Assembly: GCA_041946855.1 (NCBI GenBank)
Contig: JBHGBE010000001.1
Location: 69,346-133,345 of the forward strand
Length of the DNA stretch: 64,000 bases
From: Phycisphaerae bacterium
GTDB lineage: Bacteria > Planctomycetota > Phycisphaerae > SM23-33
Direction of reading: 5' to 3'
The notes under the pieces were generated by a model. It saw only the letters and a program-made list of their open reading frames with translations, ran no database searches and had not been told where the DNA came from. Shown one piece after another: positions 4,135 through 37,426 of this stretch. Each line of letters opens with the position of its first letter. Position 1 is the stretch's first letter. A program made the translations under genes and the position numbers.

Positions 4135-5940
4135 ATGTCCTCGCGCGCTCGCACGGCCGTGGGCGTATTGGCGCTGGCGGGACTGGCGGTCCTTGTATAC
4201 CTGCCAGTCTTTAACGCGGGCTTCATCTGGGACGACGGCGTCTACGTCAAGGACCTCGCCGCCCTCAAGAGCCCCGGCGGGCTGGGGCGGATTTGGACCG
4301 ACTTCGCCGCAACGCCTCAATACTACCCGGTCGTCTTCACCAGCTTCTGGATCGAGTATCGCCTGTGGGGGCTGAACCCGGCCGGCTATCACACGGTGAA
4401 CATACTGCTGCACGCCGCTTGCGCCGCGCTGCTGTGGATTCTCCTGCGGCGGCTGGGCGTGCGCGGAGCGTGGCTCATCGCGGCCGTGTTTGCCTGCCAT
4501 CCTCTGAACGTGGAATCGGTCGCCTGGATCACGGAGCGAAAGAACGTCTTGTCGATGCTGTTCGCGCTCCTCGCAGCGATGGCGTATTTGCGGAAAATAG
4601 GGACGCACCCCATTTTCTCACGGTCTTGGGCTGGGCGGGCCGGCGTGGTCATGGAGAAAATGGGGTGCGTCCCTATTTTCCTGTTCGCATTGGCCTTGCT
4701 GAGCAAGACGGCCGTTTGCGGGTTGCCTCTGGCGTTGCTTGCGATTGTGTGGTGGAAGCGCGGGCGGCTCGGGTGGCGCGACCTGGCGGCCGTGACGCCC
4801 ATGCTTCTGCTGGCGGCGTGCGGCGCGGTCCTCACGGCGTGGATTGAGTCGAGCTTCTACGGCGACGCCCGGCCGCCAGTCGGGGCGGCCCTTGGGCTGG
4901 CCGATCGCGTAATCGTCGCCGGACGTGCCCTGTGGTTCTACGTTGGCAAGGTGCTCTGCCCCGCCCCTCTGACGGCCGTATACACCAGGTGGGAAGTAAG
5001 CGCCGGAACGTGGTGGCAGTGGCTGTTCCCTCTGTCGGCGATGGCTACCGTCGCGGGCCTGGCGATTGCGCGGAGGCGCATCGGCCGAGGTCCGCTGGCG
5101 GCGGCCATGGTATTCATTGTCATGCTCGCTCCCGCGCTGGGCTTCTTTCAGATCGCCTATCACACGATCTACAGCTACGTGGCGGACCACTTCGCCTACT
5201 TCGCCGTGCCGGCGGCCGTCGCCCTGGCCGTCGAAGCAGGCGCGAAGCTGCTCGACCGCGCCGGTCCGCGTTCCAGGCCCATCGGCATCGTGGCGTCGAC
5301 GGCCGTCCTCATCGCCCTGTCCGCGCTGGCCTGGCGGCACGCGAACGTCTTCAAGGACAACCTGACGCTCTGGCAGGATGCGGCCGCTAAGAACCCCACG
5401 TGCATGATCGCCCACGACCAGCTCGGAATGAGGTGGGTGCAGGCCGGCCAGATGAGCAAGGCCGTCGAGGAGTTCAGCAAGGTGGTCGAGCTGGCCCCGC
5501 GTTTCGCCGAGGGATACGCCAATCGCGGCGGGGTGTACCTCCAGTGCGGCCGGTTCCAGCAGGCCCTGGCCGACTTCGATGCGGCCGTCGCGCTCGACGG
5601 GCAGTTCGCCTCGGCGTGGTGCAGCCGGGGCAGCGCCAACTGCGGGCTCGGCCGTCACGAACAGGCCGACGCGGACTTCACAAAGGCGATCGAGCTTGAC
5701 CCGACAATGGCGGCCGCGTGGAGCAACCGGGCGATCTGCCGGTTCCATCAGCGGCGGTACGCCGAAGCGATGGCGGATGTGCGGAAGTTCCAGCAGCTAG
5801 GCGGCCAGGCGCCGCCCGAGTTCATCCAGGCCCTCGACGGCGCCATTCGGAGCCGCGTCAATCCTCCGGCGTCGGAAAAGCCGGGATGTCCTGCATCGGC
5901 GGAGGCTCCTGCGGCGCCGCGACAAGCGGCTGGGTCGTGA
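4135..5940 (+). CDS. TMTC-like GT-C membrane glycosyltransferase with C-terminal TPR repeats
   Basis: FIWDD, NPAGYHTVNILLH, HPLNVESVAWITERKNVLS, multiple TM helices, TPR repeats; start at 4135 inferred. Confidence 0.8.
   Translation: MSSRARTAVGVLALAGLAVLVYLPVFNAGFIWDDGVYVKDLAALKSPGGLGRIWTDFAATPQYYPVVFTSFWIEYRLWGLNPAGYHTVNILLHAACAALLWILLRRLGVRGAWLIAAVFACHPLNVESVAWITERKNVLSMLFALLAAMAYLRKIGTHPIFSRSWAGRAGVVMEKMGCVPIFLFALALLSKTAVCGLPLALLAIVWWKRGRLGWRDLAAVTPMLLLAACGAVLTAWIESSFYGDARPPVGAALGLADRVIVAGRALWFYVGKVLCPAPLTAVYTRWEVSAGTWWQWLFPLSAMATVAGLAIARRRIGRGPLAAAMVFIVMLAPALGFFQIAYHTIYSYVADHFAYFAVPAAVALAVEAGAKLLDRAGPRSRPIGIVASTAVLIALSALAWRHANVFKDNLTLWQDAAAKNPTCMIAHDQLGMRWVQAGQMSKAVEEFSKVVELAPRFAEGYANRGGVYLQCGRFQQALADFDAAVALDGQFASAWCSRGSANCGLGRHEQADADFTKAIELDPTMAAAWSNRAICRFHQRRYAEAMADVRKFQQLGGQAPPEFIQALDGAIRSRVNPPASEKPGCPASAEAPAAPRQAAGS
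4592..4681. repeat. In-frame palindromic element, 28-bp perfect arms, 90 bp total
   Basis: GGAAAATAGGGACGCACCCCATTTTCTC (4592-4619) and its exact reverse complement (4654-4681). Confidence 0.9.
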
Positions 5941-7171
5941 CGGCCGGCAGCGTGCTGGTCAGCTTGCCATTGGGCAGGCGGAAGTACTTGCTGATGATCT
6001 CCATCGCGGGCTTGTCCTTGGGGCAGTAGCCGCTGTCTTCGTCGGGGCCTGTCCGCTGGCCCTCGTAGTTGCGCCATTCCCACACGAGGTAGCCCGCGAC
6101 GGCCGGCTCCCCGGCCCAGGTCTTGAAGAACGCCTCGAAGCACCGCTTCTGGAGCTGGGGGTCCTTCTTGTCCATCGAGCGGTAGTAGTCCCACGGGAAC
6201 TGCGCGGCCGTCACCTGGTTGGGCCAGGCGGCCTCGGTGAACAAGATCGGCCTGCCGACCGTCGCCTGCCAGGCCAGCACGTCCTTCTTGATGCCCGCCC
6301 ACGTCTCCATCAGCACGTCGAGCGTCGGCTCCTTCGACCCGCACAGGTCGTGGTAGGTCGTCATGCCGACGATGTCTAGCTTGTCCCAGAACCTGGGCCC
6401 CCCCTGGTCGGCCTTGAAGTGGTCCCAGTTGGCCGAGTAGCTCAGGTAGCCGCTGAAGTGCTCGCGGACCTGCTTGATGAGCCTGTCCCACCTGTCGTCC
6501 TGCTGCTCCAGGCTGATAAGCTCGCTGCCGACCATGAAGATCTCGACCTTGGCCTCCTGGGCGATGTCGGCGCAGTGGAGGATGTAGTCGCCGTAGCTCT
6601 TCCACCAGTCATCCCAGGTGTTGCGGTCCTTGGTGGGGTCGATCTTGCCGCGCCACTCGCCCTCGCGGGGGCTGTCCAGCAGGACGATGGGCATGAGTAT
6701 CACGCGCATCCCCTGCTCGTGGGCGAGGCCGACAAGCTCCTTGAGCCGCTTCTTGGAGGGGGCCTTGCGGGCGTCGAAGAAGATGCTCGACGATCCGCAG
6801 TTCTGCTGGAACGCCGCCACGCTCATGCAGACCGTGTTGGCCCCGGTGGCGGCTATCTCCTTGATGTACTTGTCGTAGGGGTTGCTATCGTCCCCGTTGA
6901 ACTGAATGCTGATGCCGCGTATCTGGGCGAAGTCCGTCGGCTTGAACACGTTTGGGGGCGGATCGGCCGGCTTGCCCGGCTTGGTCGTCGTCGGCGGCAC
7001 GGCCCCGACGTGCCGGATGACTTGGAGGGCGACTATCCCCGCAAGCGCCAGCGCGATGGCCGTCAGCACGAGGGCCTTGTCGCGGCCCGACAGCAGGCTG
7101 TCACCGGCCCCGGTCGTCTGGGCCGCGGTTCGCTGGTTCGCATTATCCTTGGCGGTCGCTGAATGTCCCAT
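5858..7171 (-). CDS. Membrane-anchored glycoside hydrolase, GH113-like TIM barrel
   Basis: N-terminal TM segment; WRGKIDP, VGSEL, YSANWD, ILFTEAAWP motifs. Confidence 0.75.
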   Translation of the reverse strand: MGHSATAKDNANQRTAAQTTGAGDSLLSGRDKALVLTAIALALAGIVALQVIRHVGAVPPTTTKPGKPADPPPNVFKPTDFAQIRGISIQFNGDDSNPYDKYIKEIAATGANTVCMSVAAFQQNCGSSSIFFDARKAPSKKRLKELVGLAHEQGMRVILMPIVLLDSPREGEWRGKIDPTKDRNTWDDWWKSYGDYILHCADIAQEAKVEIFMVGSELISLEQQDDRWDRLIKQVREHFSGYLSYSANWDHFKADQGGPRFWDKLDIVGMTTYHDLCGSKEPTLDVLMETWAGIKKDVLAWQATVGRPILFTEAAWPNQVTAAQFPWDYYRSMDKKDPQLQKRCFEAFFKTWAGEPAVAGYLVWEWRNYEGQRTGPDEDSGYCPKDKPAMEIISKYFRLPNGKLTSTLPAVTTQPLVAAPQEPPPMQDIPAFPTPED

Positions 7172-29919: not shown

Positions 29920-30044
29920 GAATGTTCTCCTTGCTGTCCGGGGCTCTCCGGTTTCGCTGATCCCCGCCAGGCGGCGGGTTGGAAGGCAGATTCTAGGATC
30001 GCCCTTACGCCGACGCCAGAGAAAAGGCCGCTCCGCAACTCGCC

Positions 30045-33000
30045 CTATTGTGCCGGCGCGGGCGCCGCGATCTGATCGCACAGGCGGGCGTAGTGGCAAA
30101 GCCGGCAGGCGGGGGTCTGGCATTTGATGAATGTCCCGGCGCGGCGGTCGGCGATCAGCCTGTGCGCCAGGTCGCCGACGGATGCTCGTGCCTCTTCCAG
30201 CACGGGCGGTGTGATCTCGATTCGCACTGCCTGGGCCGGGCGGAGGAAGTAGAGCGTCGCATCGGCCGGCGGCGCGCCGAAGTGCCTGGCGGCCGCCGCG
30301 GCGTAGAGAAGCATCTGGAGCCGATAGCGGTCCGCGTGTGCATCCGCGCCCTCGGACCCGACGCGGTCGGATTTGTAGTCAACTATGTGCCACGCGCCGG
30401 CCCCGTCCTGGTACAGCAGGTCGATCTGCCCGCGCAGCACGGCCGGCGAAGAATCCATCACGAAATCAAGCTCGCGGAAGACCTGCCGCGCGCCGGCCAG
30501 CGACGCGGAGAGCGGATGGGCCGCAAACGTAACGAGCATCGCCTTAAAGTCCTCGGCCACGGCCGCCAGGTCTATATCCTCACTCAGCCCCATCTCGCCC
30601 GCCTGACGCCTGACCAGCGAAGCGGCCATGGCCGCCGGCCCATCATAATTACGGATTGCGGATTGCGGATTGCGGATTTCCGCTTCATTGGTCCGGGCCA
30701 AGGAACCGAGGTCGAGATGCTCCATGCAGCCGTGATAGAGCGTGCCCAGGGTCGCCGCGTCGAGTGGAAAAGGGGACATTCTGCTTCTTCCTGCCTCAAT
30801 TGCGGCAGGACTTGGTTCGCGCCCGGGCGCCGGACCAGGCAGTTCGCCGGCAGCGGGGGGGAAAAGTTGAATGTCCCCTTTTCCTGGCAACATGCACTCC
30901 GGCACTCGAAGCTCGTATCGCCAGCGATACAGCCTCGGGCACCGCGAGTACTCGCTGAGGGCCGTTACCGCGATCTCGACCTTGCCACGCGTCGGCGGCA
31001 GAGGGCCGACCAGTCCGGCCATCTCAGCCGCCGGCTTACCCGTCTTTGCCGGCGCCGGCCCAGCCGACTTCAGTATGCCTGCCGTGACATCTTCCGCGCA
31101 CTTGGCCGCGGCGAGTATCGTCTGACCGATGGGCTTCCTCCCGCGCGCCGGCCTGGGCGGCTTTGGCGTGACGGCCTTCACCGATGCCTTGAGCCGCTTG
31201 TTCCCGTATGAGATACTCTCCCGGTCGTTGTCGATCGCGCTCGCAATGCCCAACACGCTGTCCAGGTCGCCCAGGTAGCATCCAGCCTTGAACGGCTCGC
31301 CGTCCTTCCGCGAGTTCGCGCCGACGAGGACGAGATGGTCCTCGTGCCGCGTGACGGCCACGTAGAACTTGCGGATGTCCTCGCGGCGCTGGTCGTCATC
31401 CTCCATCGCGGCTGCAAGCCGGTACGACAGCGGCGCATCCGGCCCTGGGGCCTCTTCATCCGCGGATTCCGGAGATTGCGCCGATTCGTTAGCGCCGCTC
31501 GAAGGGCACTTGTACGTCAGGCCCCAGTCGGAGCGGTTCAGCAGCGCCGGCCGCCCGCCGCGCCGGGCAAAGTTCAGGTCCGGCAGCACGACCACCGGGA
31601 ACTCCAGCCCCTTGGCCTTGTGGATGGTCATAATGCGGACCACGTCCTCGCCCTCCCCCGCCACGGCCGCCTGCTCGAACCGCGACTGGTCGATCACCCG
31701 CTCGCCCATCTCGCCGATGAAGCCCGCCAGCGACGCCGGCCCGGCGGTCGCCGCGCGGGCGTGCTCGATCAGCATTCGCACGTTGCCCAGCATCCGCCTT
31801 CCCTCGAACTGGCTCAGCAGCGTCGCCTCGTATCCGGTCGCCGCGAGCACCCGCTCGATGAGCTGGTCGATGCCGACGGCGTCCTTGATGCCGTGCAGGC
31901 CCCACAACAGTTCCACGGCCGTGCGCAGCGATTCCTGCTGCGGTGCGGTCAGCGCGGGCACGGACGTGGCGACAAGCTTGGGCATGTACGGTGGCCTGAA
32001 GGCCGCCGCTATGTGCATAAGCGCGTTATCGTCCAGCCCGAACAGGCTGCTTCGCAGCACGCCGAAGAACGAGACATCGTCGAACGGGTTGTCGATCACA
32101 CGCAGCGCGTTGAGGACGTCGAAGACCTCCTGCTGGTTGAAGAAACCAGTCCCGGCCACGACGTAGTACGGCACCTCGCGCCGCGCCAGCTCGCGCTCGT
32201 AATCGAGGCTCGCGGTCATGCGCGAGAAGAGGATCGCGATGTCGCGCGGCCGGACGGCCCGCCAGGCGTTGGCGGCCTGGTCCCAGACGAGCTTCTCGCC
32301 GTCGTCGAGCATCTGGCGGATGCGCTGCGCGACGGCCGCGGCCTGGGCGGCCGTCGATTCATCCGCGCGCCTGGGCCGCTCGCCCTCGGCCGTGTTGGCG
32401 ACGATGATCTCGACCGAAGGCCCGCGCTGCGGCGACCCGGCGAACGGACGTCTGGCCTTGATAGGCTCGTAGTCGTCGCCCATCAGCGGCCCGAAGAGGT
32501 GATTGACGAACGCCGCGCCCGCCTCGTGGGTGCGGAAGGACAGGTCAAGCCACTCCTGTTTCCTGGGCCCCAGGCGGCGGCAGAGGTTCTGGAACACCTC
32601 CACCTGCGCGCCGCGGAAGCGATAGATGCTCTGCTTGGCGTCGCCGACGAGGAAGAGCCGGCCGTCGGGCAACTTCGCCTGTGGCGCCCCCAAGCCGCCG
32701 TCTCGCCTGGAGGTGTCACTCATAGCCAGCTCCTGCCAGGACTCATCGGGGAAGATCGCCATCATCAGCAGCGCCGCCTGGAATGAGTCCGTGTCCTGGC
32801 ACTCATCAATGAGAAGCTGGTCGATCTGCTTGCGGACCGACTGGCGGATATCCTCGTTGTCCTCAAGCAGCCGGTGTGCGTAGTAGAGCAGGTCAGTGAA
32901 ATCCAGCATGCCGGCCGCACGCTTCTCGGCGGTGAAGATGGTATTGGCCCGCTGGGCAAGCGATGTGATCGCCGCCAGGGCCTTGGCGGATGGGGCGTCC

Positions 33001-33935
33001 AACTCGCCGAGTTCCTCACCGTACAGAGCGTACTTCCGCGCGGCTTCGAACAGCTCAACCAGGATGTGCCGCATCGCCACGGCAGGCTTTGACATGCCGC
33101 CGATCCGGCCGAGTTTGTCGGGCAATTCCGCAAGCGCGGCCGCACGCGCCGGCGTCGGCTCGCGGAGAAGCGATTCGATCAGGCCGAGCGCCTGACTCCG
33201 GATCGCCAGCAGGTCCTCCTTGACGCCGTCAGTAATCGCGTTCTTCGCGCCGGCCAGCAGCGACGCGATCCTGTCGTCGCGGGCCAGCCTCGCCCACGCG
33301 GCGGCGCGGGCGTACTCGACCATCGTTTTCCACCGGGCCAGCGTCCTGTCCGCATCCGCGTAGTCTTCGGGCCGCCACATCGTGCGGTCGCGCACGAGCT
33401 GCCGGACCAGGTCGACCATCTCGTCGAACGAGACATGCTGGAGCACCTCCGCGACATCCTCCTGCGCCGACTCGACGGCCGTGAGCACCGCCTTGTCGGC
33501 CGCCTCCGCGATCATCCGGCCGACGGTCAGTTCATCGGAGCATACGGCGAAGTTCGGGTCGATGCCCGCCTGCACCGCGTGCGAGCGGAGCAGCGTCGAG
33601 CAGAAGCTGTGGATTGTGGAGATCCGCGCGTCGTCCACTTCCTCCAGCCAGCCGAGGATTCGCTCGCGGCTCTCGCCCTTGGCCCTGGCCGCCAGTTCCG
33701 CGAGCATCGAGCGCACGCGCTGCGACATCTCCAGCGCAGCCTTGTCGGTGAATGTCAGCGCCACGAACCGCCGCAATGGATTCTCATCGCCGGCGGCCAT
33801 GAGCAGCTCGGTGAACCGCCGCGCGAGCACGAACGTCTTGCCACAGCCGGCCCCGCTGCGAAGGGCGAGGTTCTCCCCGATCCGCGTCCGCGCCGCGGCA
33901 TCCTGGGCCGGCGTGAGCTTGGGGGCCTGGCTCAT
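30045..33935 (-). CDS. addA: AddA/AdnB-type UvrD helicase with RecB nuclease
   Basis: [71 protein letters not shown]. Confidence 0.88.
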
Positions 33936-36900
33936 GTCGTGCCCTCCGGCGCTTCTTCATCCGCGGCGCGCAGTTCCTGGCGAGCAGGCGAGAACTGGCA
34001 GACCTGCCGGAAGGGGCAGTAGGCGGGGCAACTCCGCCCGGTGGGCAGCAGGTCGAAATGCCCGCGCCGCATCCCCTCGACGAACCGGCCGACACACGCC
34101 ATTGCTTCCCTGCGGGCGTCGGGGAACTTGCCATCCTCGACGAAGACGCCATCCTCGAGCTTCACGGCCGCGAAGTATCGCTCGAACGGACCGTCATCCT
34201 CCGCAACGCGGTGGACTACCCCGCCAAGGCATTCCTTCGCCAGCAGTTCGCCCGCGGCCGCCTGGTAGAGAGGAAGCTGAAGGCTGCGGCCCTCGACGAT
34301 GTCCCTGGCGCTTGGGAGTCGGCCGGTCTTGTAGTCGATAACGAGGATGGCCGGCCGCCCTTCGATGTCGAGGAGGTCCACGCGGTCGATCTTGCCGGCC
34401 AGGTGTATCTTGCCGGCCGATGTGTCGATGGCGACGCTCGTGGGCGTGCTGGCGGGGTCAACATCCTCGGCGTCGCGGATGTCGCGCCCGAAGGAGAGCT
34501 CAAAGTGGATGCCTCCGCCGGCCGCGTCGCCACGCGCGCGAATCGTCGCGGCGTAGTGCCGGAGCCGCCGAGTCAGCTCGGCAAGCTGGAGCCGCCAGAG
34601 CAGCGGATACGGCGGGCGCCGCGCCTCCACGCGCGATGCCTCGGCCGATATCGCCTCATCCAGCGCCGCCATCGCATCCGCCTCCGCGATTCCGTTCAGG
34701 CGCACGGGCAGCCCGTGGCGGCCGGCCAGCAGACGCATCCAGCCGAAGAGCACTTCGTGGCAGAATATCCCGGCCGCGACCGCCTCAAGCTCCCGCTGCG
34801 GCTCCTCCAGCGGCGCCAGGCCCAGCACGTGCGTCGCGAAGAACTGCCAGGGGCACTGGCCGTATGTGTTGAACTGGCTGGCCGAAAAGACCGCCTGTTC
34901 GCCGCCGAACCGCCTGCCCAGCGCATCCATCAGCCGCTCATCTGTCAGCCGGCCGTCGAACTCATTGCACGGCCCGCGCTGCCATCGCCTGTGCCTGGCC
35001 CAGATGCCCATCGCGGCGCGGGCAATCTGCCGCGGCGCGGCCGATGCGGCCCACGCCAAAGCGCTCGCGTCAGGGCCGGCGCCCGCGTCGAACAGGCCGG
35101 CGATAGCCGCGTTGAACGCATCGCGCACAGAGGAAATCTCGTCTGCGGGCGGGACAAACTGCCCTTGAGGGATGCGGTGGACAATGCCGCCAGCCTGCGC
35201 CTTGGCCAATCCGCCGGCCGGGCCGACCAACGAAAGGAGGAAGTTGCTCGCGGCCCCCGGCTTGCCGGATGCATCCGACTCCAGGAAGCTGACGGTCAGC
35301 CCCGCATCCGCCCGCGAGACGGCCAGGTAGAACAGGAGCATCTCCCGGGCCAGCAGGTCGCCGCGGCTGTCGAGGCGGATGTCCCTGGCGGCCCAGGCGG
35401 CGCGTTCGGCCTCCCCCACCAGCGGGCTATCGGTGAAGCGCCGCGGGAACTGGCCCTCGCTCACGCCCAGCAGGAACACGTGGTCGTAGCGGATCGCGCG
35501 GGCGTCCAGCACGTCCAGCACGTCGACCATCGCCTCGCCACGCGGGCCGGGGCACGATATCGCCGCCAGCGCCTCGCGAATGTCGGCCAGCGGCGGGCTG
35601 GCGGCACTACCAGAGGAGTCCTCGCGCATTGCGGCCAACGCATCCTGCAAGGCAGCCAGCGCCCGCAGGTCGCGCGCCACGATGACCGGATCGCCCCCGG
35701 CAAGCGCGGCCGTCCGAAGGTCGAGCGCCTCGACCAGTCCGGCCAGGTCGCATCGCTCGCAGACATCGAAGAGCTTCTCCAGCATCTGCGCCGCGGCCGT
35801 CAGTTCATCGCCCGTGGCCACGAGCGGCCCCAGCGCGATGCCCTTGGCCTCCTCGTCATCCTCTGCGGCCGCGGCACGCTGCGCCTCCAGCCGCCGCGCC
35901 AGACGCTTGACCGCATCCGCATAGGCCTGCCGACCGGACAGGACGTTGCCCTCACGGATGAGCATCTCGGCGGCCGCGACGGTTGATGCATCGAACGGCC
36001 CCAGCGCCTGCGGCCGGAAGTAGCTGTTCTTGATGACGCGAAGCACGTCGCCGAAGGCCAGCTCCGGCGATATCGTCGCCGCGTCGAGTGCGAACCGCAC
36101 GAGCGGCACATCCGTGAGCATCGTCGGCCCGGCCGCGACGGGAATGTCGTGCGCCGCGAAGATTCGCTCGATGGCCGGCCGGTATTCATCCATCGAGCGG
36201 GCCAGCACGGCGATCCGCACGGGCTTGCCCTCCGCGACGAGCATCGCCTTGATGCGCCTCGCGACGGCCGACACCTCCGCCTCAACACCCGCGGCCGCGA
36301 TGATGTTGAAGCCACCAGGGAACGCCTCCGCACGGGCGTCGATGTCGAAGACCTCCTTCCACAAGCTGCTCAGCGGGACGCCCAGGTTGTCGTCGGCGGG
36401 TGTATGCGGCAGGCAGTGTATCTCTGTCAAGTCCTGGCCGAAGGCCCTGCGGATGTTCGCCAGCGTCCTTCCCGTCCAGTGCCAGAGCCGCTTCCGGCCA
36501 TCATCCGCGTGGGCCAGCGTGATGAGCAACTTCTCCATGCGCGGGGCCAGCAGCGCGAGTATCTCAAGCTGCGTCGGGGTGAAGTCCGTGAAGCCGTCCA
36601 CCGCCATCGCGGCGACATCCTCCAGCCCGACGGCCGCATTGGGCTGTGACTGCGCGGCCGCGAGGCAATCGCGGGCCTGCCACATTTGGCCCTCCAGGTC
36701 ATACGCGCCGTCGGCTTGAAGGCGGGCCTGATATGCCTGGTAGACCTCCAGGAGGTCCCGCGACTTGTCGGGGCGTGCCGCCTTGGCCGTCGGCCCCAAC
36801 GCCCTTGCCAAGTCCTCAGGATCGACGGCCGCCCGCTTCAGTTCCGCGATCGCCCGGTCGAGCGCCACGATGATCCCCGGCGTATCGGCGACGGCCGCCA

Positions 36901-37285
36901 TCGCCGGCAGCTTCCCCGCCCCGGCCAACTCGCCGACGATCCTCCGCAACAGCAGCCACCGCCGGAACGCCGGCAGTTGCCGCGCCGGATGCCGGCACGC
37001 CGCCAGTATCCTGTCGGCCAGCGCCGCGAACGTCAGCACCTTCGGCGCTATGACCACGCCCCCGGCCGACGCCGCGAGCAGTTGACGCTTGAGGTCCGCG
37101 ACGGCCGGCGAGTTGGGCGCTACGACCATGCACCGCGACGAGCCATCCGCCCCGGCGAAATGCCCGTACATGCCCAGCACGGCCGTCGTCTTGCCCGACG
37201 CCGCCGGCCCGCGCAGCACCACCGCTCGCGACTTGCTGGCGAGAATCTGACCGAAGAGTTCGCTCTTGCCCGGCTCTACCGACAT
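33932..37285 (-). CDS. addB: AddB/AdnA-type partner with PD-(D/E)XK nuclease
   Basis: GPAASGKT, VDGFTDFT, FSASQFNTYGQCP, GKIDRVD..IDYKTG, CPAYCPFRQVC; ATGA overlap with addA. Confidence 0.82.
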   Translation of the reverse strand: MSVEPGKSELFGQILASKSRAVVLRGPAASGKTTAVLGMYGHFAGADGSSRCMVVAPNSPAVADLKRQLLAASAGGVVIAPKVLTFAALADRILAACRHPARQLPAFRRWLLLRRIVGELAGAGKLPAMAAVADTPGIIVALDRAIAELKRAAVDPEDLARALGPTAKAARPDKSRDLLEVYQAYQARLQADGAYDLEGQMWQARDCLAAAQSQPNAAVGLEDVAAMAVDGFTDFTPTQLEILALLAPRMEKLLITLAHADDGRKRLWHWTGRTLANIRRAFGQDLTEIHCLPHTPADDNLGVPLSSLWKEVFDIDARAEAFPGGFNIIAAAGVEAEVSAVARRIKAMLVAEGKPVRIAVLARSMDEYRPAIERIFAAHDIPVAAGPTMLTDVPLVRFALDAATISPELAFGDVLRVIKNSYFRPQALGPFDASTVAAAEMLIREGNVLSGRQAYADAVKRLARRLEAQRAAAAEDDEEAKGIALGPLVATGDELTAAAQMLEKLFDVCERCDLAGLVEALDLRTAALAGGDPVIVARDLRALAALQDALAAMREDSSGSAASPPLADIREALAAISCPGPRGEAMVDVLDVLDARAIRYDHVFLLGVSEGQFPRRFTDSPLVGEAERAAWAARDIRLDSRGDLLAREMLLFYLAVSRADAGLTVSFLESDASGKPGAASNFLLSLVGPAGGLAKAQAGGIVHRIPQGQFVPPADEISSVRDAFNAAIAGLFDAGAGPDASALAWAASAAPRQIARAAMGIWARHRRWQRGPCNEFDGRLTDERLMDALGRRFGGEQAVFSASQFNTYGQCPWQFFATHVLGLAPLEEPQRELEAVAAGIFCHEVLFGWMRLLAGRHGLPVRLNGIAEADAMAALDEAISAEASRVEARRPPYPLLWRLQLAELTRRLRHYAATIRARGDAAGGGIHFELSFGRDIRDAEDVDPASTPTSVAIDTSAGKIHLAGKIDRVDLLDIEGRPAILVIDYKTGRLPSARDIVEGRSLQLPLYQAAAGELLAKECLGGVVHRVAEDDGPFERYFAAVKLEDGVFVEDGKFPDARREAMACVGRFVEGMRRGHFDLLPTGRSCPAYCPFRQVCQFSPARQELRAADEEAPEGTT

Positions 37286-37426
37286 GCCGCCCATTCTGAC
37301 AAGGGACCTCTGCTTTGTCGATTGCCTGGTCTGGAAGCTCCGATTCCTCGGTTGCACCGGTTGCGTTGGCGCGATATGCAAGATAGTCTGCTCGGCGTGT
37401 AGTCCTTACTGCGGGAACAGAGCGGA

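Follow-up and report, generated by a model that had tools for sequence, protein, structure and literature searches.

An inverted repeat within an addA-type gene

The 64,000-nucleotide stretch analyzed here (the window), positions 69,346 to 133,345 of contig JBHGBE010000001.1 from a Phycisphaerae bacterium (assembly GCA_041946855.1), carries an addA-type DNA-repair gene whose reading frame runs through a 119-bp inverted repeat, the element under study. The genome, which we refer to as G000, is a 5.2-Mb draft of 65.6% G+C in 178 contigs, 94.6% complete, in which the window is C1:69346-133345 of a 163-kb contig. The addA label is sound, since the protein joins a UvrD helicase to a C-terminal PD-(D/E)XK nuclease and has an AddB-like neighbour (Table 1). 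Its closest relatives among AddA proteins come from Phycisphaerae, at up to 56% identity, and an exact look-up of the protein found no record. When AddA residues 960-1296 were modelled with AlphaFold2 from 43 aligned sequences, the predicted C-terminal domain matched AdnA (6ppr), AddA (4ceh, 3u44) and Cas4-family nuclease folds, mycobacterial AdnA being the best match.

Two properties that the initial annotation reported for this element, a perfect 16-nt inverted repeat and an open frame with the ends GKGDIQ...RMSPFP, are exact. The sequence GGAAAAGGGGACATTC at 30766-30781 on the plus strand faces its reverse complement at 30869-30884 on the minus strand, and with mismatches the arms reach 26 nt (30766-30791 and 30859-30884) at 85% complementarity, leaving 67 nt between them. 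Translation of 30045-33935 passes the element without a stop codon as 40 residues, with the arms giving GKGDIQLF and SRMSPFP; if GAAAAG...CTTTTC are taken as the ends, the element measures 117 bp, or 39 codons. Plus-strand DNA is predicted to fold at -38.5 kcal/mol (z = -5.3) and sense-strand RNA at -61.3 kcal/mol (z = -4.3), both relative to shuffled sequence, and the right arm produces one T.T or A.A mismatch in the hairpin.

Searching the window for the 16-mer at up to 3 mismatches returned 3 matches against 0.27 expected, a number that 0 of 100 shuffles attained. For the shorter 10-mer GGGGACATTC, a tolerance of 1 mismatch gave 8 matches in the window where 4.5 were expected, which is no enrichment. 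Further occurrences had been proposed for GAATGTCCC at 7161 and 61540; the sequence is present at both sites as a bare 9-mer outside any arm context, which we ascribe to chance and not to the family described below.

A dispersed family of hairpin elements

Enrichment of the motif, which the initial annotation had anticipated, appeared at the scale of the whole genome. Base composition predicts ~0.001 copies of the exact 16-mer, of which G000 has 14; for GGGGACATTC the count is 40 where ~11 are expected. A hidden Markov model (HMM) of the arm located 37 arms in G000; apart from a few solo arms they pair up as 16 elements, each 116-125 bp long and each on a contig of its own. We call this population family A. 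The consensus arm is GGAAAAGGGGACATTC-TAC-TTTTTCSC, a unit of ~27-30 nt whose complement reads GAAAAAGTAGAATGTCCCCTTTTCC and carries a GTAG tag, and within which GAAAAG and CTTTTC are able to pair around a GGGACATTCTA loop. That the inverted repeat arose by chance or through an error of metagenome assembly is hardly conceivable, even though the genome is a 178-contig draft: besides the recurrence of the 16-mer and of 16 full copies on separate contigs, the addA frame and the G+C content at third codon positions (GC3) are continuous on either side of the element, which is far shorter than a read pair and lies well within its contig.

Family A is also present in G008, a genome from another genus of the same bacterial family, which holds ~36 arms and ~18 paired copies in size classes of ~58, ~83 and ~120 bp. 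Across two genera the inverted two-arm arrangement was found in 30 copies. Oriented alignment showed ~27-30 conserved nt per end (ggAAAAGGGGACATTCTaCTTTTtCSC ... GSGAAAAGTTGAATGTCCCCTTTTcc) and, inward of the arms, the motifs CGATWGCG and GCCGGCG, which are common to copies including the one in addA; that copy carries them as CAATTGCG and GCCGGC, weakly shared with the others. The interior is poorly conserved, yet in 25 copies from two genera it keeps to a constant length of 64-73 nt. Complementarity at positions 27-46 was no better within elements than between them (p = 0.75), so the stem ends at ~27-30 nt. When 25 copies were aligned in orientation together with their 20-nt flanks, no target-site duplication, direct repeat or conserved flank emerged.

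Every G000 copy pairs one T-type arm (ATTC-TAC, complement GTAG) with one A-type arm (ATTC-AAC). A universal functional role for this asymmetry was rejected, because 36 of 45 doublets in other taxa are T/T; the asymmetry is better read as the mark of a sub-lineage than as a functional requirement. The tags of the addA copy are degenerate, reading GTTG and, in the complement of the left arm, GCAG.

When gene status was judged by a GC3 and open reading frame (ORF) proxy in place of annotation, 14 of the 16 paired copies in G000 were intergenic and 2 intragenic. The second in-frame copy, at C114:4271-4392, lies between the two halves of an 807-residue MMPL-family transporter and is translated in a different frame and orientation, as RKRGHSAFSP...KKLNVPFS. 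Half of all reading frames through the elements contain no stop codon, and it is therefore not a rare outcome for a copy to arrive in a tolerant linker with the frame kept and no stop introduced. Elsewhere in the genome, C2:19546-21132 holds a CRISPR array (24 copies of the 37-nt repeat GCTGTGTCAGGCCCCGAAATGCGGGGTATCAACAGGG, with a period of 66), which ends 5 nt ahead of the solo family-A arm at C2:21107.

Family-A arms flank transposase genes in other genomes

Repetitive extragenic palindromes (REPs) are reportedly associated with IS200/IS605-like Y1 enzymes, the REP-associated tyrosine transposases, or RAYTs, a link credited to Nunvar in 2010. We scanned species-representative genomes for the arm with the query AAAGGGGACATTCWRCTTTT and found at least 118 stretches across Phycisphaerae, Pirellulales, Gemmatales and Planctomycetales and, outside Planctomycetota, in Nitrospira, Anaerolineales, Methylomirabilales and gammaproteobacterial metagenome-assembled genomes. 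At four of these loci (L099, from Gemmataceae, L050, L086 and L094), inverted family-A arms 724-739 bp apart bracket a Y1_Tnp gene of ~220 aa, and at three more (L108, L113 and L126) a family-A arm directly abuts a Y1_Tnp-type gene. These proteins exceed the Pfam Y1_Tnp cut-off and score 66-79 bits against NCBIfam NF047646 (REP-associated tyrosine transposase), just below its 80-bit cut-off. The stop codon of the RAYT is the TAG of the arm's own GTAG. Short doublets in the genomes that bear this RAYT flanked by family-A arms (RAYT_A) span 43 to 172 bp.

The GTAG tag, together with arms tightly flanking RAYT genes elsewhere, identifies the element in addA as a head-to-head REP doublet resembling a REPIN (a REP doublet forming a hairpin), as defined by Bertels & Rainey 2011 (PMC3116915). 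By sequence, then, family A is a GTAG-type REP family with a RAYT of its own, and the 119-bp unit is its REPIN-like head-to-head doublet. Such a doublet would consist of two REP units of ~27-30 nt set around a spacer of 64-73 nt. We consider it very probable that the inverted repeat in addA is a non-autonomous REP-type element, mobilised by a RAYT-type transposase and now in frame in the variable linker of the AddA nuclease domain.

Sister families in the same genome

Seven Y1_Tnp (IS200-like) matches were found in G000. In two of them the gene is of the RAYT type and has REP doublets close on both sides. Arms of the first type, AATAGGGACGCACCCTATTT, flank the RAYT gene at C95:25388-25711 and belong to family B, whose representative in the window begins at position 4592. 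Arms of the second type, GAAAAAGTAGTGACTGTCCCGACTTT, define family C; they flank the RAYT at C95:39568-39903 and number 60 genome-wide. At the latter locus (L013 1364-2210, equivalent to C95:39431-40277), a 247-aa RAYT gene lies between family-C doublets and its TAG stop is the GTAG of the downstream REP. Family-C arms are mostly arranged as tail-to-tail doublets with a 3-nt loop.

The initial annotation had proposed that the addA element shares a purine run and a GGGAC core with the element at 4592, and this likeness holds, in that both arms are built as an A/T run, a GGGAC core and a complementary A/T run. Families A and C have GGGACA..TC..CTACTTTTTCG in common. RAYT paralogues in related genomes each have their own REP variant, with a GGGGACA core between complementary A/T runs. 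On this comparison, family A and the 4592 element both fall within a set of GGGAC-core REPs that flank RAYT genes.

Table 1. Coordinates of the addA element, its host genes and the family-B element within the window
Feature	Position	Strand	Description and basis
addA-type gene	30045..33935	-	1296 aa; UvrD-like helicase and PD-(D/E)XK nuclease with four conserved cysteines; Pfam UvrD-helicase, UvrD_C, PDDEXK_1
addB-type gene	33932..37381	-	1149 aa; immediately upstream of addA with a 4-nt overlap; Pfam ADDB_N, PDDEXK_1
AddA nuclease-domain linker	30747..30908	-	aa 1010-1063 (RVPECMLP...LDAATL), host site of the element; alignment, AlphaFold model
Family-A element	30766..30884	.	Head-to-head REP doublet, REPIN-like; 119 bp, GG to CC; one of 16 paired genomic copies with conserved ends
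Left arm, T-type	30766..30791	+	GGAAAAGGGGACATTC-TGC-TTCTTCC; arm HMM 30.4 bits, E = 1.4e-6
Right arm, A-type	30859..30884	-	Minus-strand GGAAAAGGGGACATTC-AAC-TTTTCCC; arm HMM 35.9 bits, E = 2.7e-8
Interior	30792..30858	.	67 nt; small hairpin CCTGCC-TCAATTGC-GGCAGG; subterminal motifs CAATTGCG and GCCGGC
Family-B REP doublet, 4592 element	4592..4682	.	GGAAAATAGGGACGCACCCCATTTTCTC and reverse complement

Relation to known repeat classes

Family A is a new family within the known REP/REPIN class and not a new kind of element. Super-families of GTAG-tagged REPs, some of them in Planctomycetes, have been described with head-to-head dimers and an association with RAYTs (Di Nocera 2013, PMC3733652), and the GTAG of such REPs supplies stop codons for flanking ORFs (PMC3733652). 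Like them, family A is built from a short GTAG-tagged palindrome that flanks RAYT genes and gives the flanking ORF its TAG stop, and its inverted head-to-head doublets fold as one long hairpin. It occurs as tens of dispersed, mostly extragenic copies without target-site duplication, several REP families and RAYT paralogues share one genome, and occasional copies lie in frame within genes, notably DNA-repair genes. It differs in having an A/T-rich stem of 6-7 bp with an 11-nt GGGGACATTCTA loop, whereas the REP stem is G+C-rich; in a long (64-73 nt), poorly conserved spacer; and in that no cognate RAYT was found in G000 or G008.

The family-A arm sequence was not found in the text or supplement of PMC3733652, a comparison outside which the consensus sequences of its Figure 1 fall, and the Rhodopirellula baltica families GTAG-20 and GTAG-21 from that supplement encode peptides unlike those of family A. 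Family A, with the core GGGGACATTC, is a GTAG-type REP family not catalogued before; its 20-nt arm is conserved across Planctomycetota and also occurs, accompanied by its own RAYT, in several further phyla.

Two other classes of small palindromic repeats resemble the addA element. Rickettsia palindromic elements (Ogata et al. 2000), the classic case of palindromes inserted in frame, are CGTC-tagged and have no known transposase according to the summary in PMC3733652. As summarised in PMC10969869 and PMC3733652, they are palindromes of ~100-150 bp, lying in frame in unrelated housekeeping genes and translated there as additional fold-compatible segments of 30-50 aa. They belong to another sequence family and phylum and have a large intragenic fraction in Rickettsia, against 2 of 16 copies for family A. 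Identity with them was rejected, family-A arms being GTAG-type with no CGTC terminus. [quoted passage not shown] MITEs derive from insertion sequences with DDE transposases and generate target-site duplications. The family-A elements show no such duplication, and arm pairs ~724-752 bp apart enclose only Y1_Tnp genes, so that they do not qualify as MITEs. In a search of 30650-31000 against Rfam at E values up to 10, no known RNA family was recovered, and sub-threshold matches alone were returned (lin-4 at 21.6 bits, with a cut-off of 40, and naRNA4 at 12.9 bits).

Probable insertion into a variable linker of AddA

The element occupies a linker whose length and sequence vary in all of 35 aligned homologues; this linker joins the nuclease core to the helix on which the first of four conserved cysteines lies. 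Fixed motifs delimit a linker of 54 aa in this AddA, against a median of 27 aa (range 19-98) in 106 homologues. The gap of ~40 aa that the initial annotation expected relative to orthologues thus takes a smaller form: the linker is longer, by ~27 aa as judged from the alignment, at a site that is naturally variable. The arm-encoded peptides GKGDIQLF and SRMSPFP occur in 0 of the 35 aligned homologues, and the GGGGACATTC arm occurs in 0 of 8 linker DNAs from relatives. Within the interior, in-frame GC3 is 0.5 (12 of 24 codons), compared with 0.88 and 0.80 in the addA flanks and ~0.7-0.95 in the native linkers of relatives, making the insert compositionally foreign.

The insert leaves the conserved parts of the protein in place. 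Catalytic motifs and iron-sulphur (Fe-S) cysteines are conserved despite it, the nuclease-motif residues and cysteines being invariant in the alignment. In the AlphaFold2 model, mean predicted local distance difference test (pLDDT) is 86, with values of 50-76 over the insert (model residues 59-98) and above 90 in the core, a prediction in line with the disordered loop that the initial annotation had envisaged. The proposal that a related element family had entered a repair gene without breaking its frame is likewise borne out, with 16 paired genomic copies of which one lies inside an intact AddA-type gene. The cysteines themselves (C999, C1277, C1280 and C1286, window ~30078-30939) are conserved in the clade in the pattern CPxxY ... 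CxxCx5C, as in AddB- and Cas4-type Fe-S nucleases. Bacillus AddA is not known to carry an Fe-S cluster.

These features suggest how the insertion could have come about. Family-A elements would most likely have moved as single-stranded hairpins through the action of a REP-associated tyrosine (HUH/Y1) transposase, and one copy would have landed in the variable surface linker after the first Fe-S-cysteine helix of the AddA nuclease domain. Survival of such a copy would have depended on a length that keeps the frame, a frame free of stops and a site tolerant of extra residues, and the element would now be translated as a probably disordered loop of ~40 aa rich in Pro, Gly and Ala. We infer the transposition mechanism, the translation of the insert and its neutrality.

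A different history is conceivable in which two separate single REPs of ~27 nt inserted in inverted orientation on either side of ~65 nt of native AddA linker, the Pro-rich spacer being original. Linker length agrees with this, as removal of the arms alone leaves ~36 aa, inside the natural range of 19-46, while removal of the whole element leaves ~15 aa, below the minimum; the interiors of the G000 copies can barely be aligned, and the interior peptide, rich in Pro, Ala and Gly, resembles native linkers. Set against this are the constant interior length in 25 copies from two genera, the homologous interiors of some G008 copies at separate loci (z = 10.8) and the subterminal motifs that the addA copy has in common with other copies. 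The interior also has a lower GC3 than both addA and the native linkers of relatives. We regard two independent insertions as very improbable.

Insertion of a single REPIN-like doublet is the reading that we prefer, and several observations weigh against it. Neither an allele with an empty site nor a close relative turned up among 20 relatives (best 56% identity) or in metagenome contigs, which gave 27-33% matches only. Excision of the whole element would leave ~15 aa, shorter than the 19-aa minimum among the 106 homologues, so either the event did not amount to a plain, clean insertion or the native linker was later shortened. Loss of some native sequence, at the time of insertion or afterwards, is probable. 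The interior of the addA copy is only weakly similar to those of other G000 copies (z = 2.6 against shuffles). Arms are conserved far better than interiors, which fits poorly with pure neutral decay of an orphan family. Finally, no RAYT flanked by family-A arms was found in G000, at 94.6% completeness, or in G008.

The missing transposase bears on how the local copies are maintained. No RAYT lies within 1.5 kb of any family-A arm in G000, as judged from the seven Y1_Tnp loci with their flanks and from tblastn with six RAYT_A proteins. The best RAYT_A-like matches across G000 and G008 are just 35-41% identical, those in G000 being the RAYTs of families B and C, with 31-38% identity, and genomes that hold RAYT_A-like genes at ~50% identity have other REP variants. 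Because no cognate RAYT is present in the assembly, the family-A copies here are probably an orphaned, slowly decaying population, or else are moved in trans by the family-C RAYT. They bear in this way on the question of how orphan REPIN populations persist without a transposase.

Other repeats in the AddA linker and the question of function

The linker holds repeats in other lineages as well, all unrelated to family A. In G011 (L004 2088-2324) it contains two copies of the hairpin CCCCCTGCGGAAGCAGGGGG, which has 151 matches in that genome, and a second hairpin pair. The G008 linker (L032 ~430-700) contains hairpin and heptad-like arrays, that of G009 (L005) contains direct repeats, and those of P0022 and P0043 contain the tandem decapeptide DMGKMPMLQK.

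A further reading is that the hairpin in addA is retained for a host function and is more than a tolerated selfish insert. In the RNA it could serve as an internal attenuator, an RNase site or a point where ribosomes pause between the helicase module and the nuclease module; in the protein, the loop could modulate the AddAB nuclease. In the sense RNA the strong predicted fold (-61 kcal/mol, z = -4.3) is followed by UUUUCC, repeats were acquired independently in the same linker in G011, G008, G009 and P0022/P0043, and the arms have stayed conserved in the absence of a cognate RAYT. Di Nocera et al. also speculated that REPs in genes of replication and global repair (UvrABCD, RecBCD, DNA polymerases) are not fortuitous (PMC3733652). 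The inserts of different lineages, on the other hand, bear no relation to one another and thus conserve neither a common structure nor a common peptide; the linker is variable in all homologues, with low model confidence there; most family-A copies are intergenic; and the codon composition of the insert is not adapted to addA. A terminator and promoter scan of 30000-31600 left the element unflagged. An intrinsic terminator, with a compact G+C-rich stem-loop and at least 5 T, was rejected on the tail of just TTTTCC and the 67-nt loop. A host function for the hairpin is, in our judgement, very improbable.

A broader proposal is that hairpin repeats have settled again and again in the AddA linker within this bacterial family, and that repair genes of the end-processing kind are targets of such hairpins or sites of selection for them, the inserts being more than neutral passengers that tolerance has let through. 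Unrelated repeats in the linkers of at least 4-5 lineages, together with near-invariant arms in two genera without RAYT_A, leave room for this reading, which we consider unlikely. If it were correct, the hairpins might modulate the activity or expression of AddAB, or might insert during AddAB-dependent processing of hairpin DNA.

A non-autonomous REPIN-like doublet carried in a tolerant linker is in itself an ordinary finding. REPs "entirely located within ORFs" have been published, many of them in uvrABCD, recBCD and polymerase genes and possibly in flexible linkers (PMC3733652), and the addA case is a clear example of what is already known of intragenic REPs in repair genes. Less ordinary are the repeated use of the AddA linker by different repeats and the conservation of arms without a cognate RAYT. 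The former bears on whether the excess of REPs that has been published for DNA-repair genes reflects more than tolerance of flexible linkers. For annotation, the practical consequence is that the 40 additional aa of AddA, like those of the MMPL transporter, are repeat-derived and do not constitute a new domain.

Two further segments of this addA gene set it apart from its homologues. About 100 nt downstream of the element, a heptamer array, (AATCCGC)x3.5 at 30652-30679, is bracketed by a 17-nt inverted repeat (30609-30625 and 30680-30696, spanning 30609-30696); the region adds ~11-22 aa that are absent from homologues and has pLDDT values of 62-76. Heptamer-repeat hairpins in the same genome have arms made of tandem 7-8-nt units and no RAYT link, unlike family A, and assignment of the element to that class was rejected, as family-A arms are a unique 27-nt sequence and not tandem 7-mers. 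Residues 402-420 of AddA (window 32676-32732) form a genome-specific segment that is absent in at least 75% of aligned homologues and shows no obvious DNA repeat.

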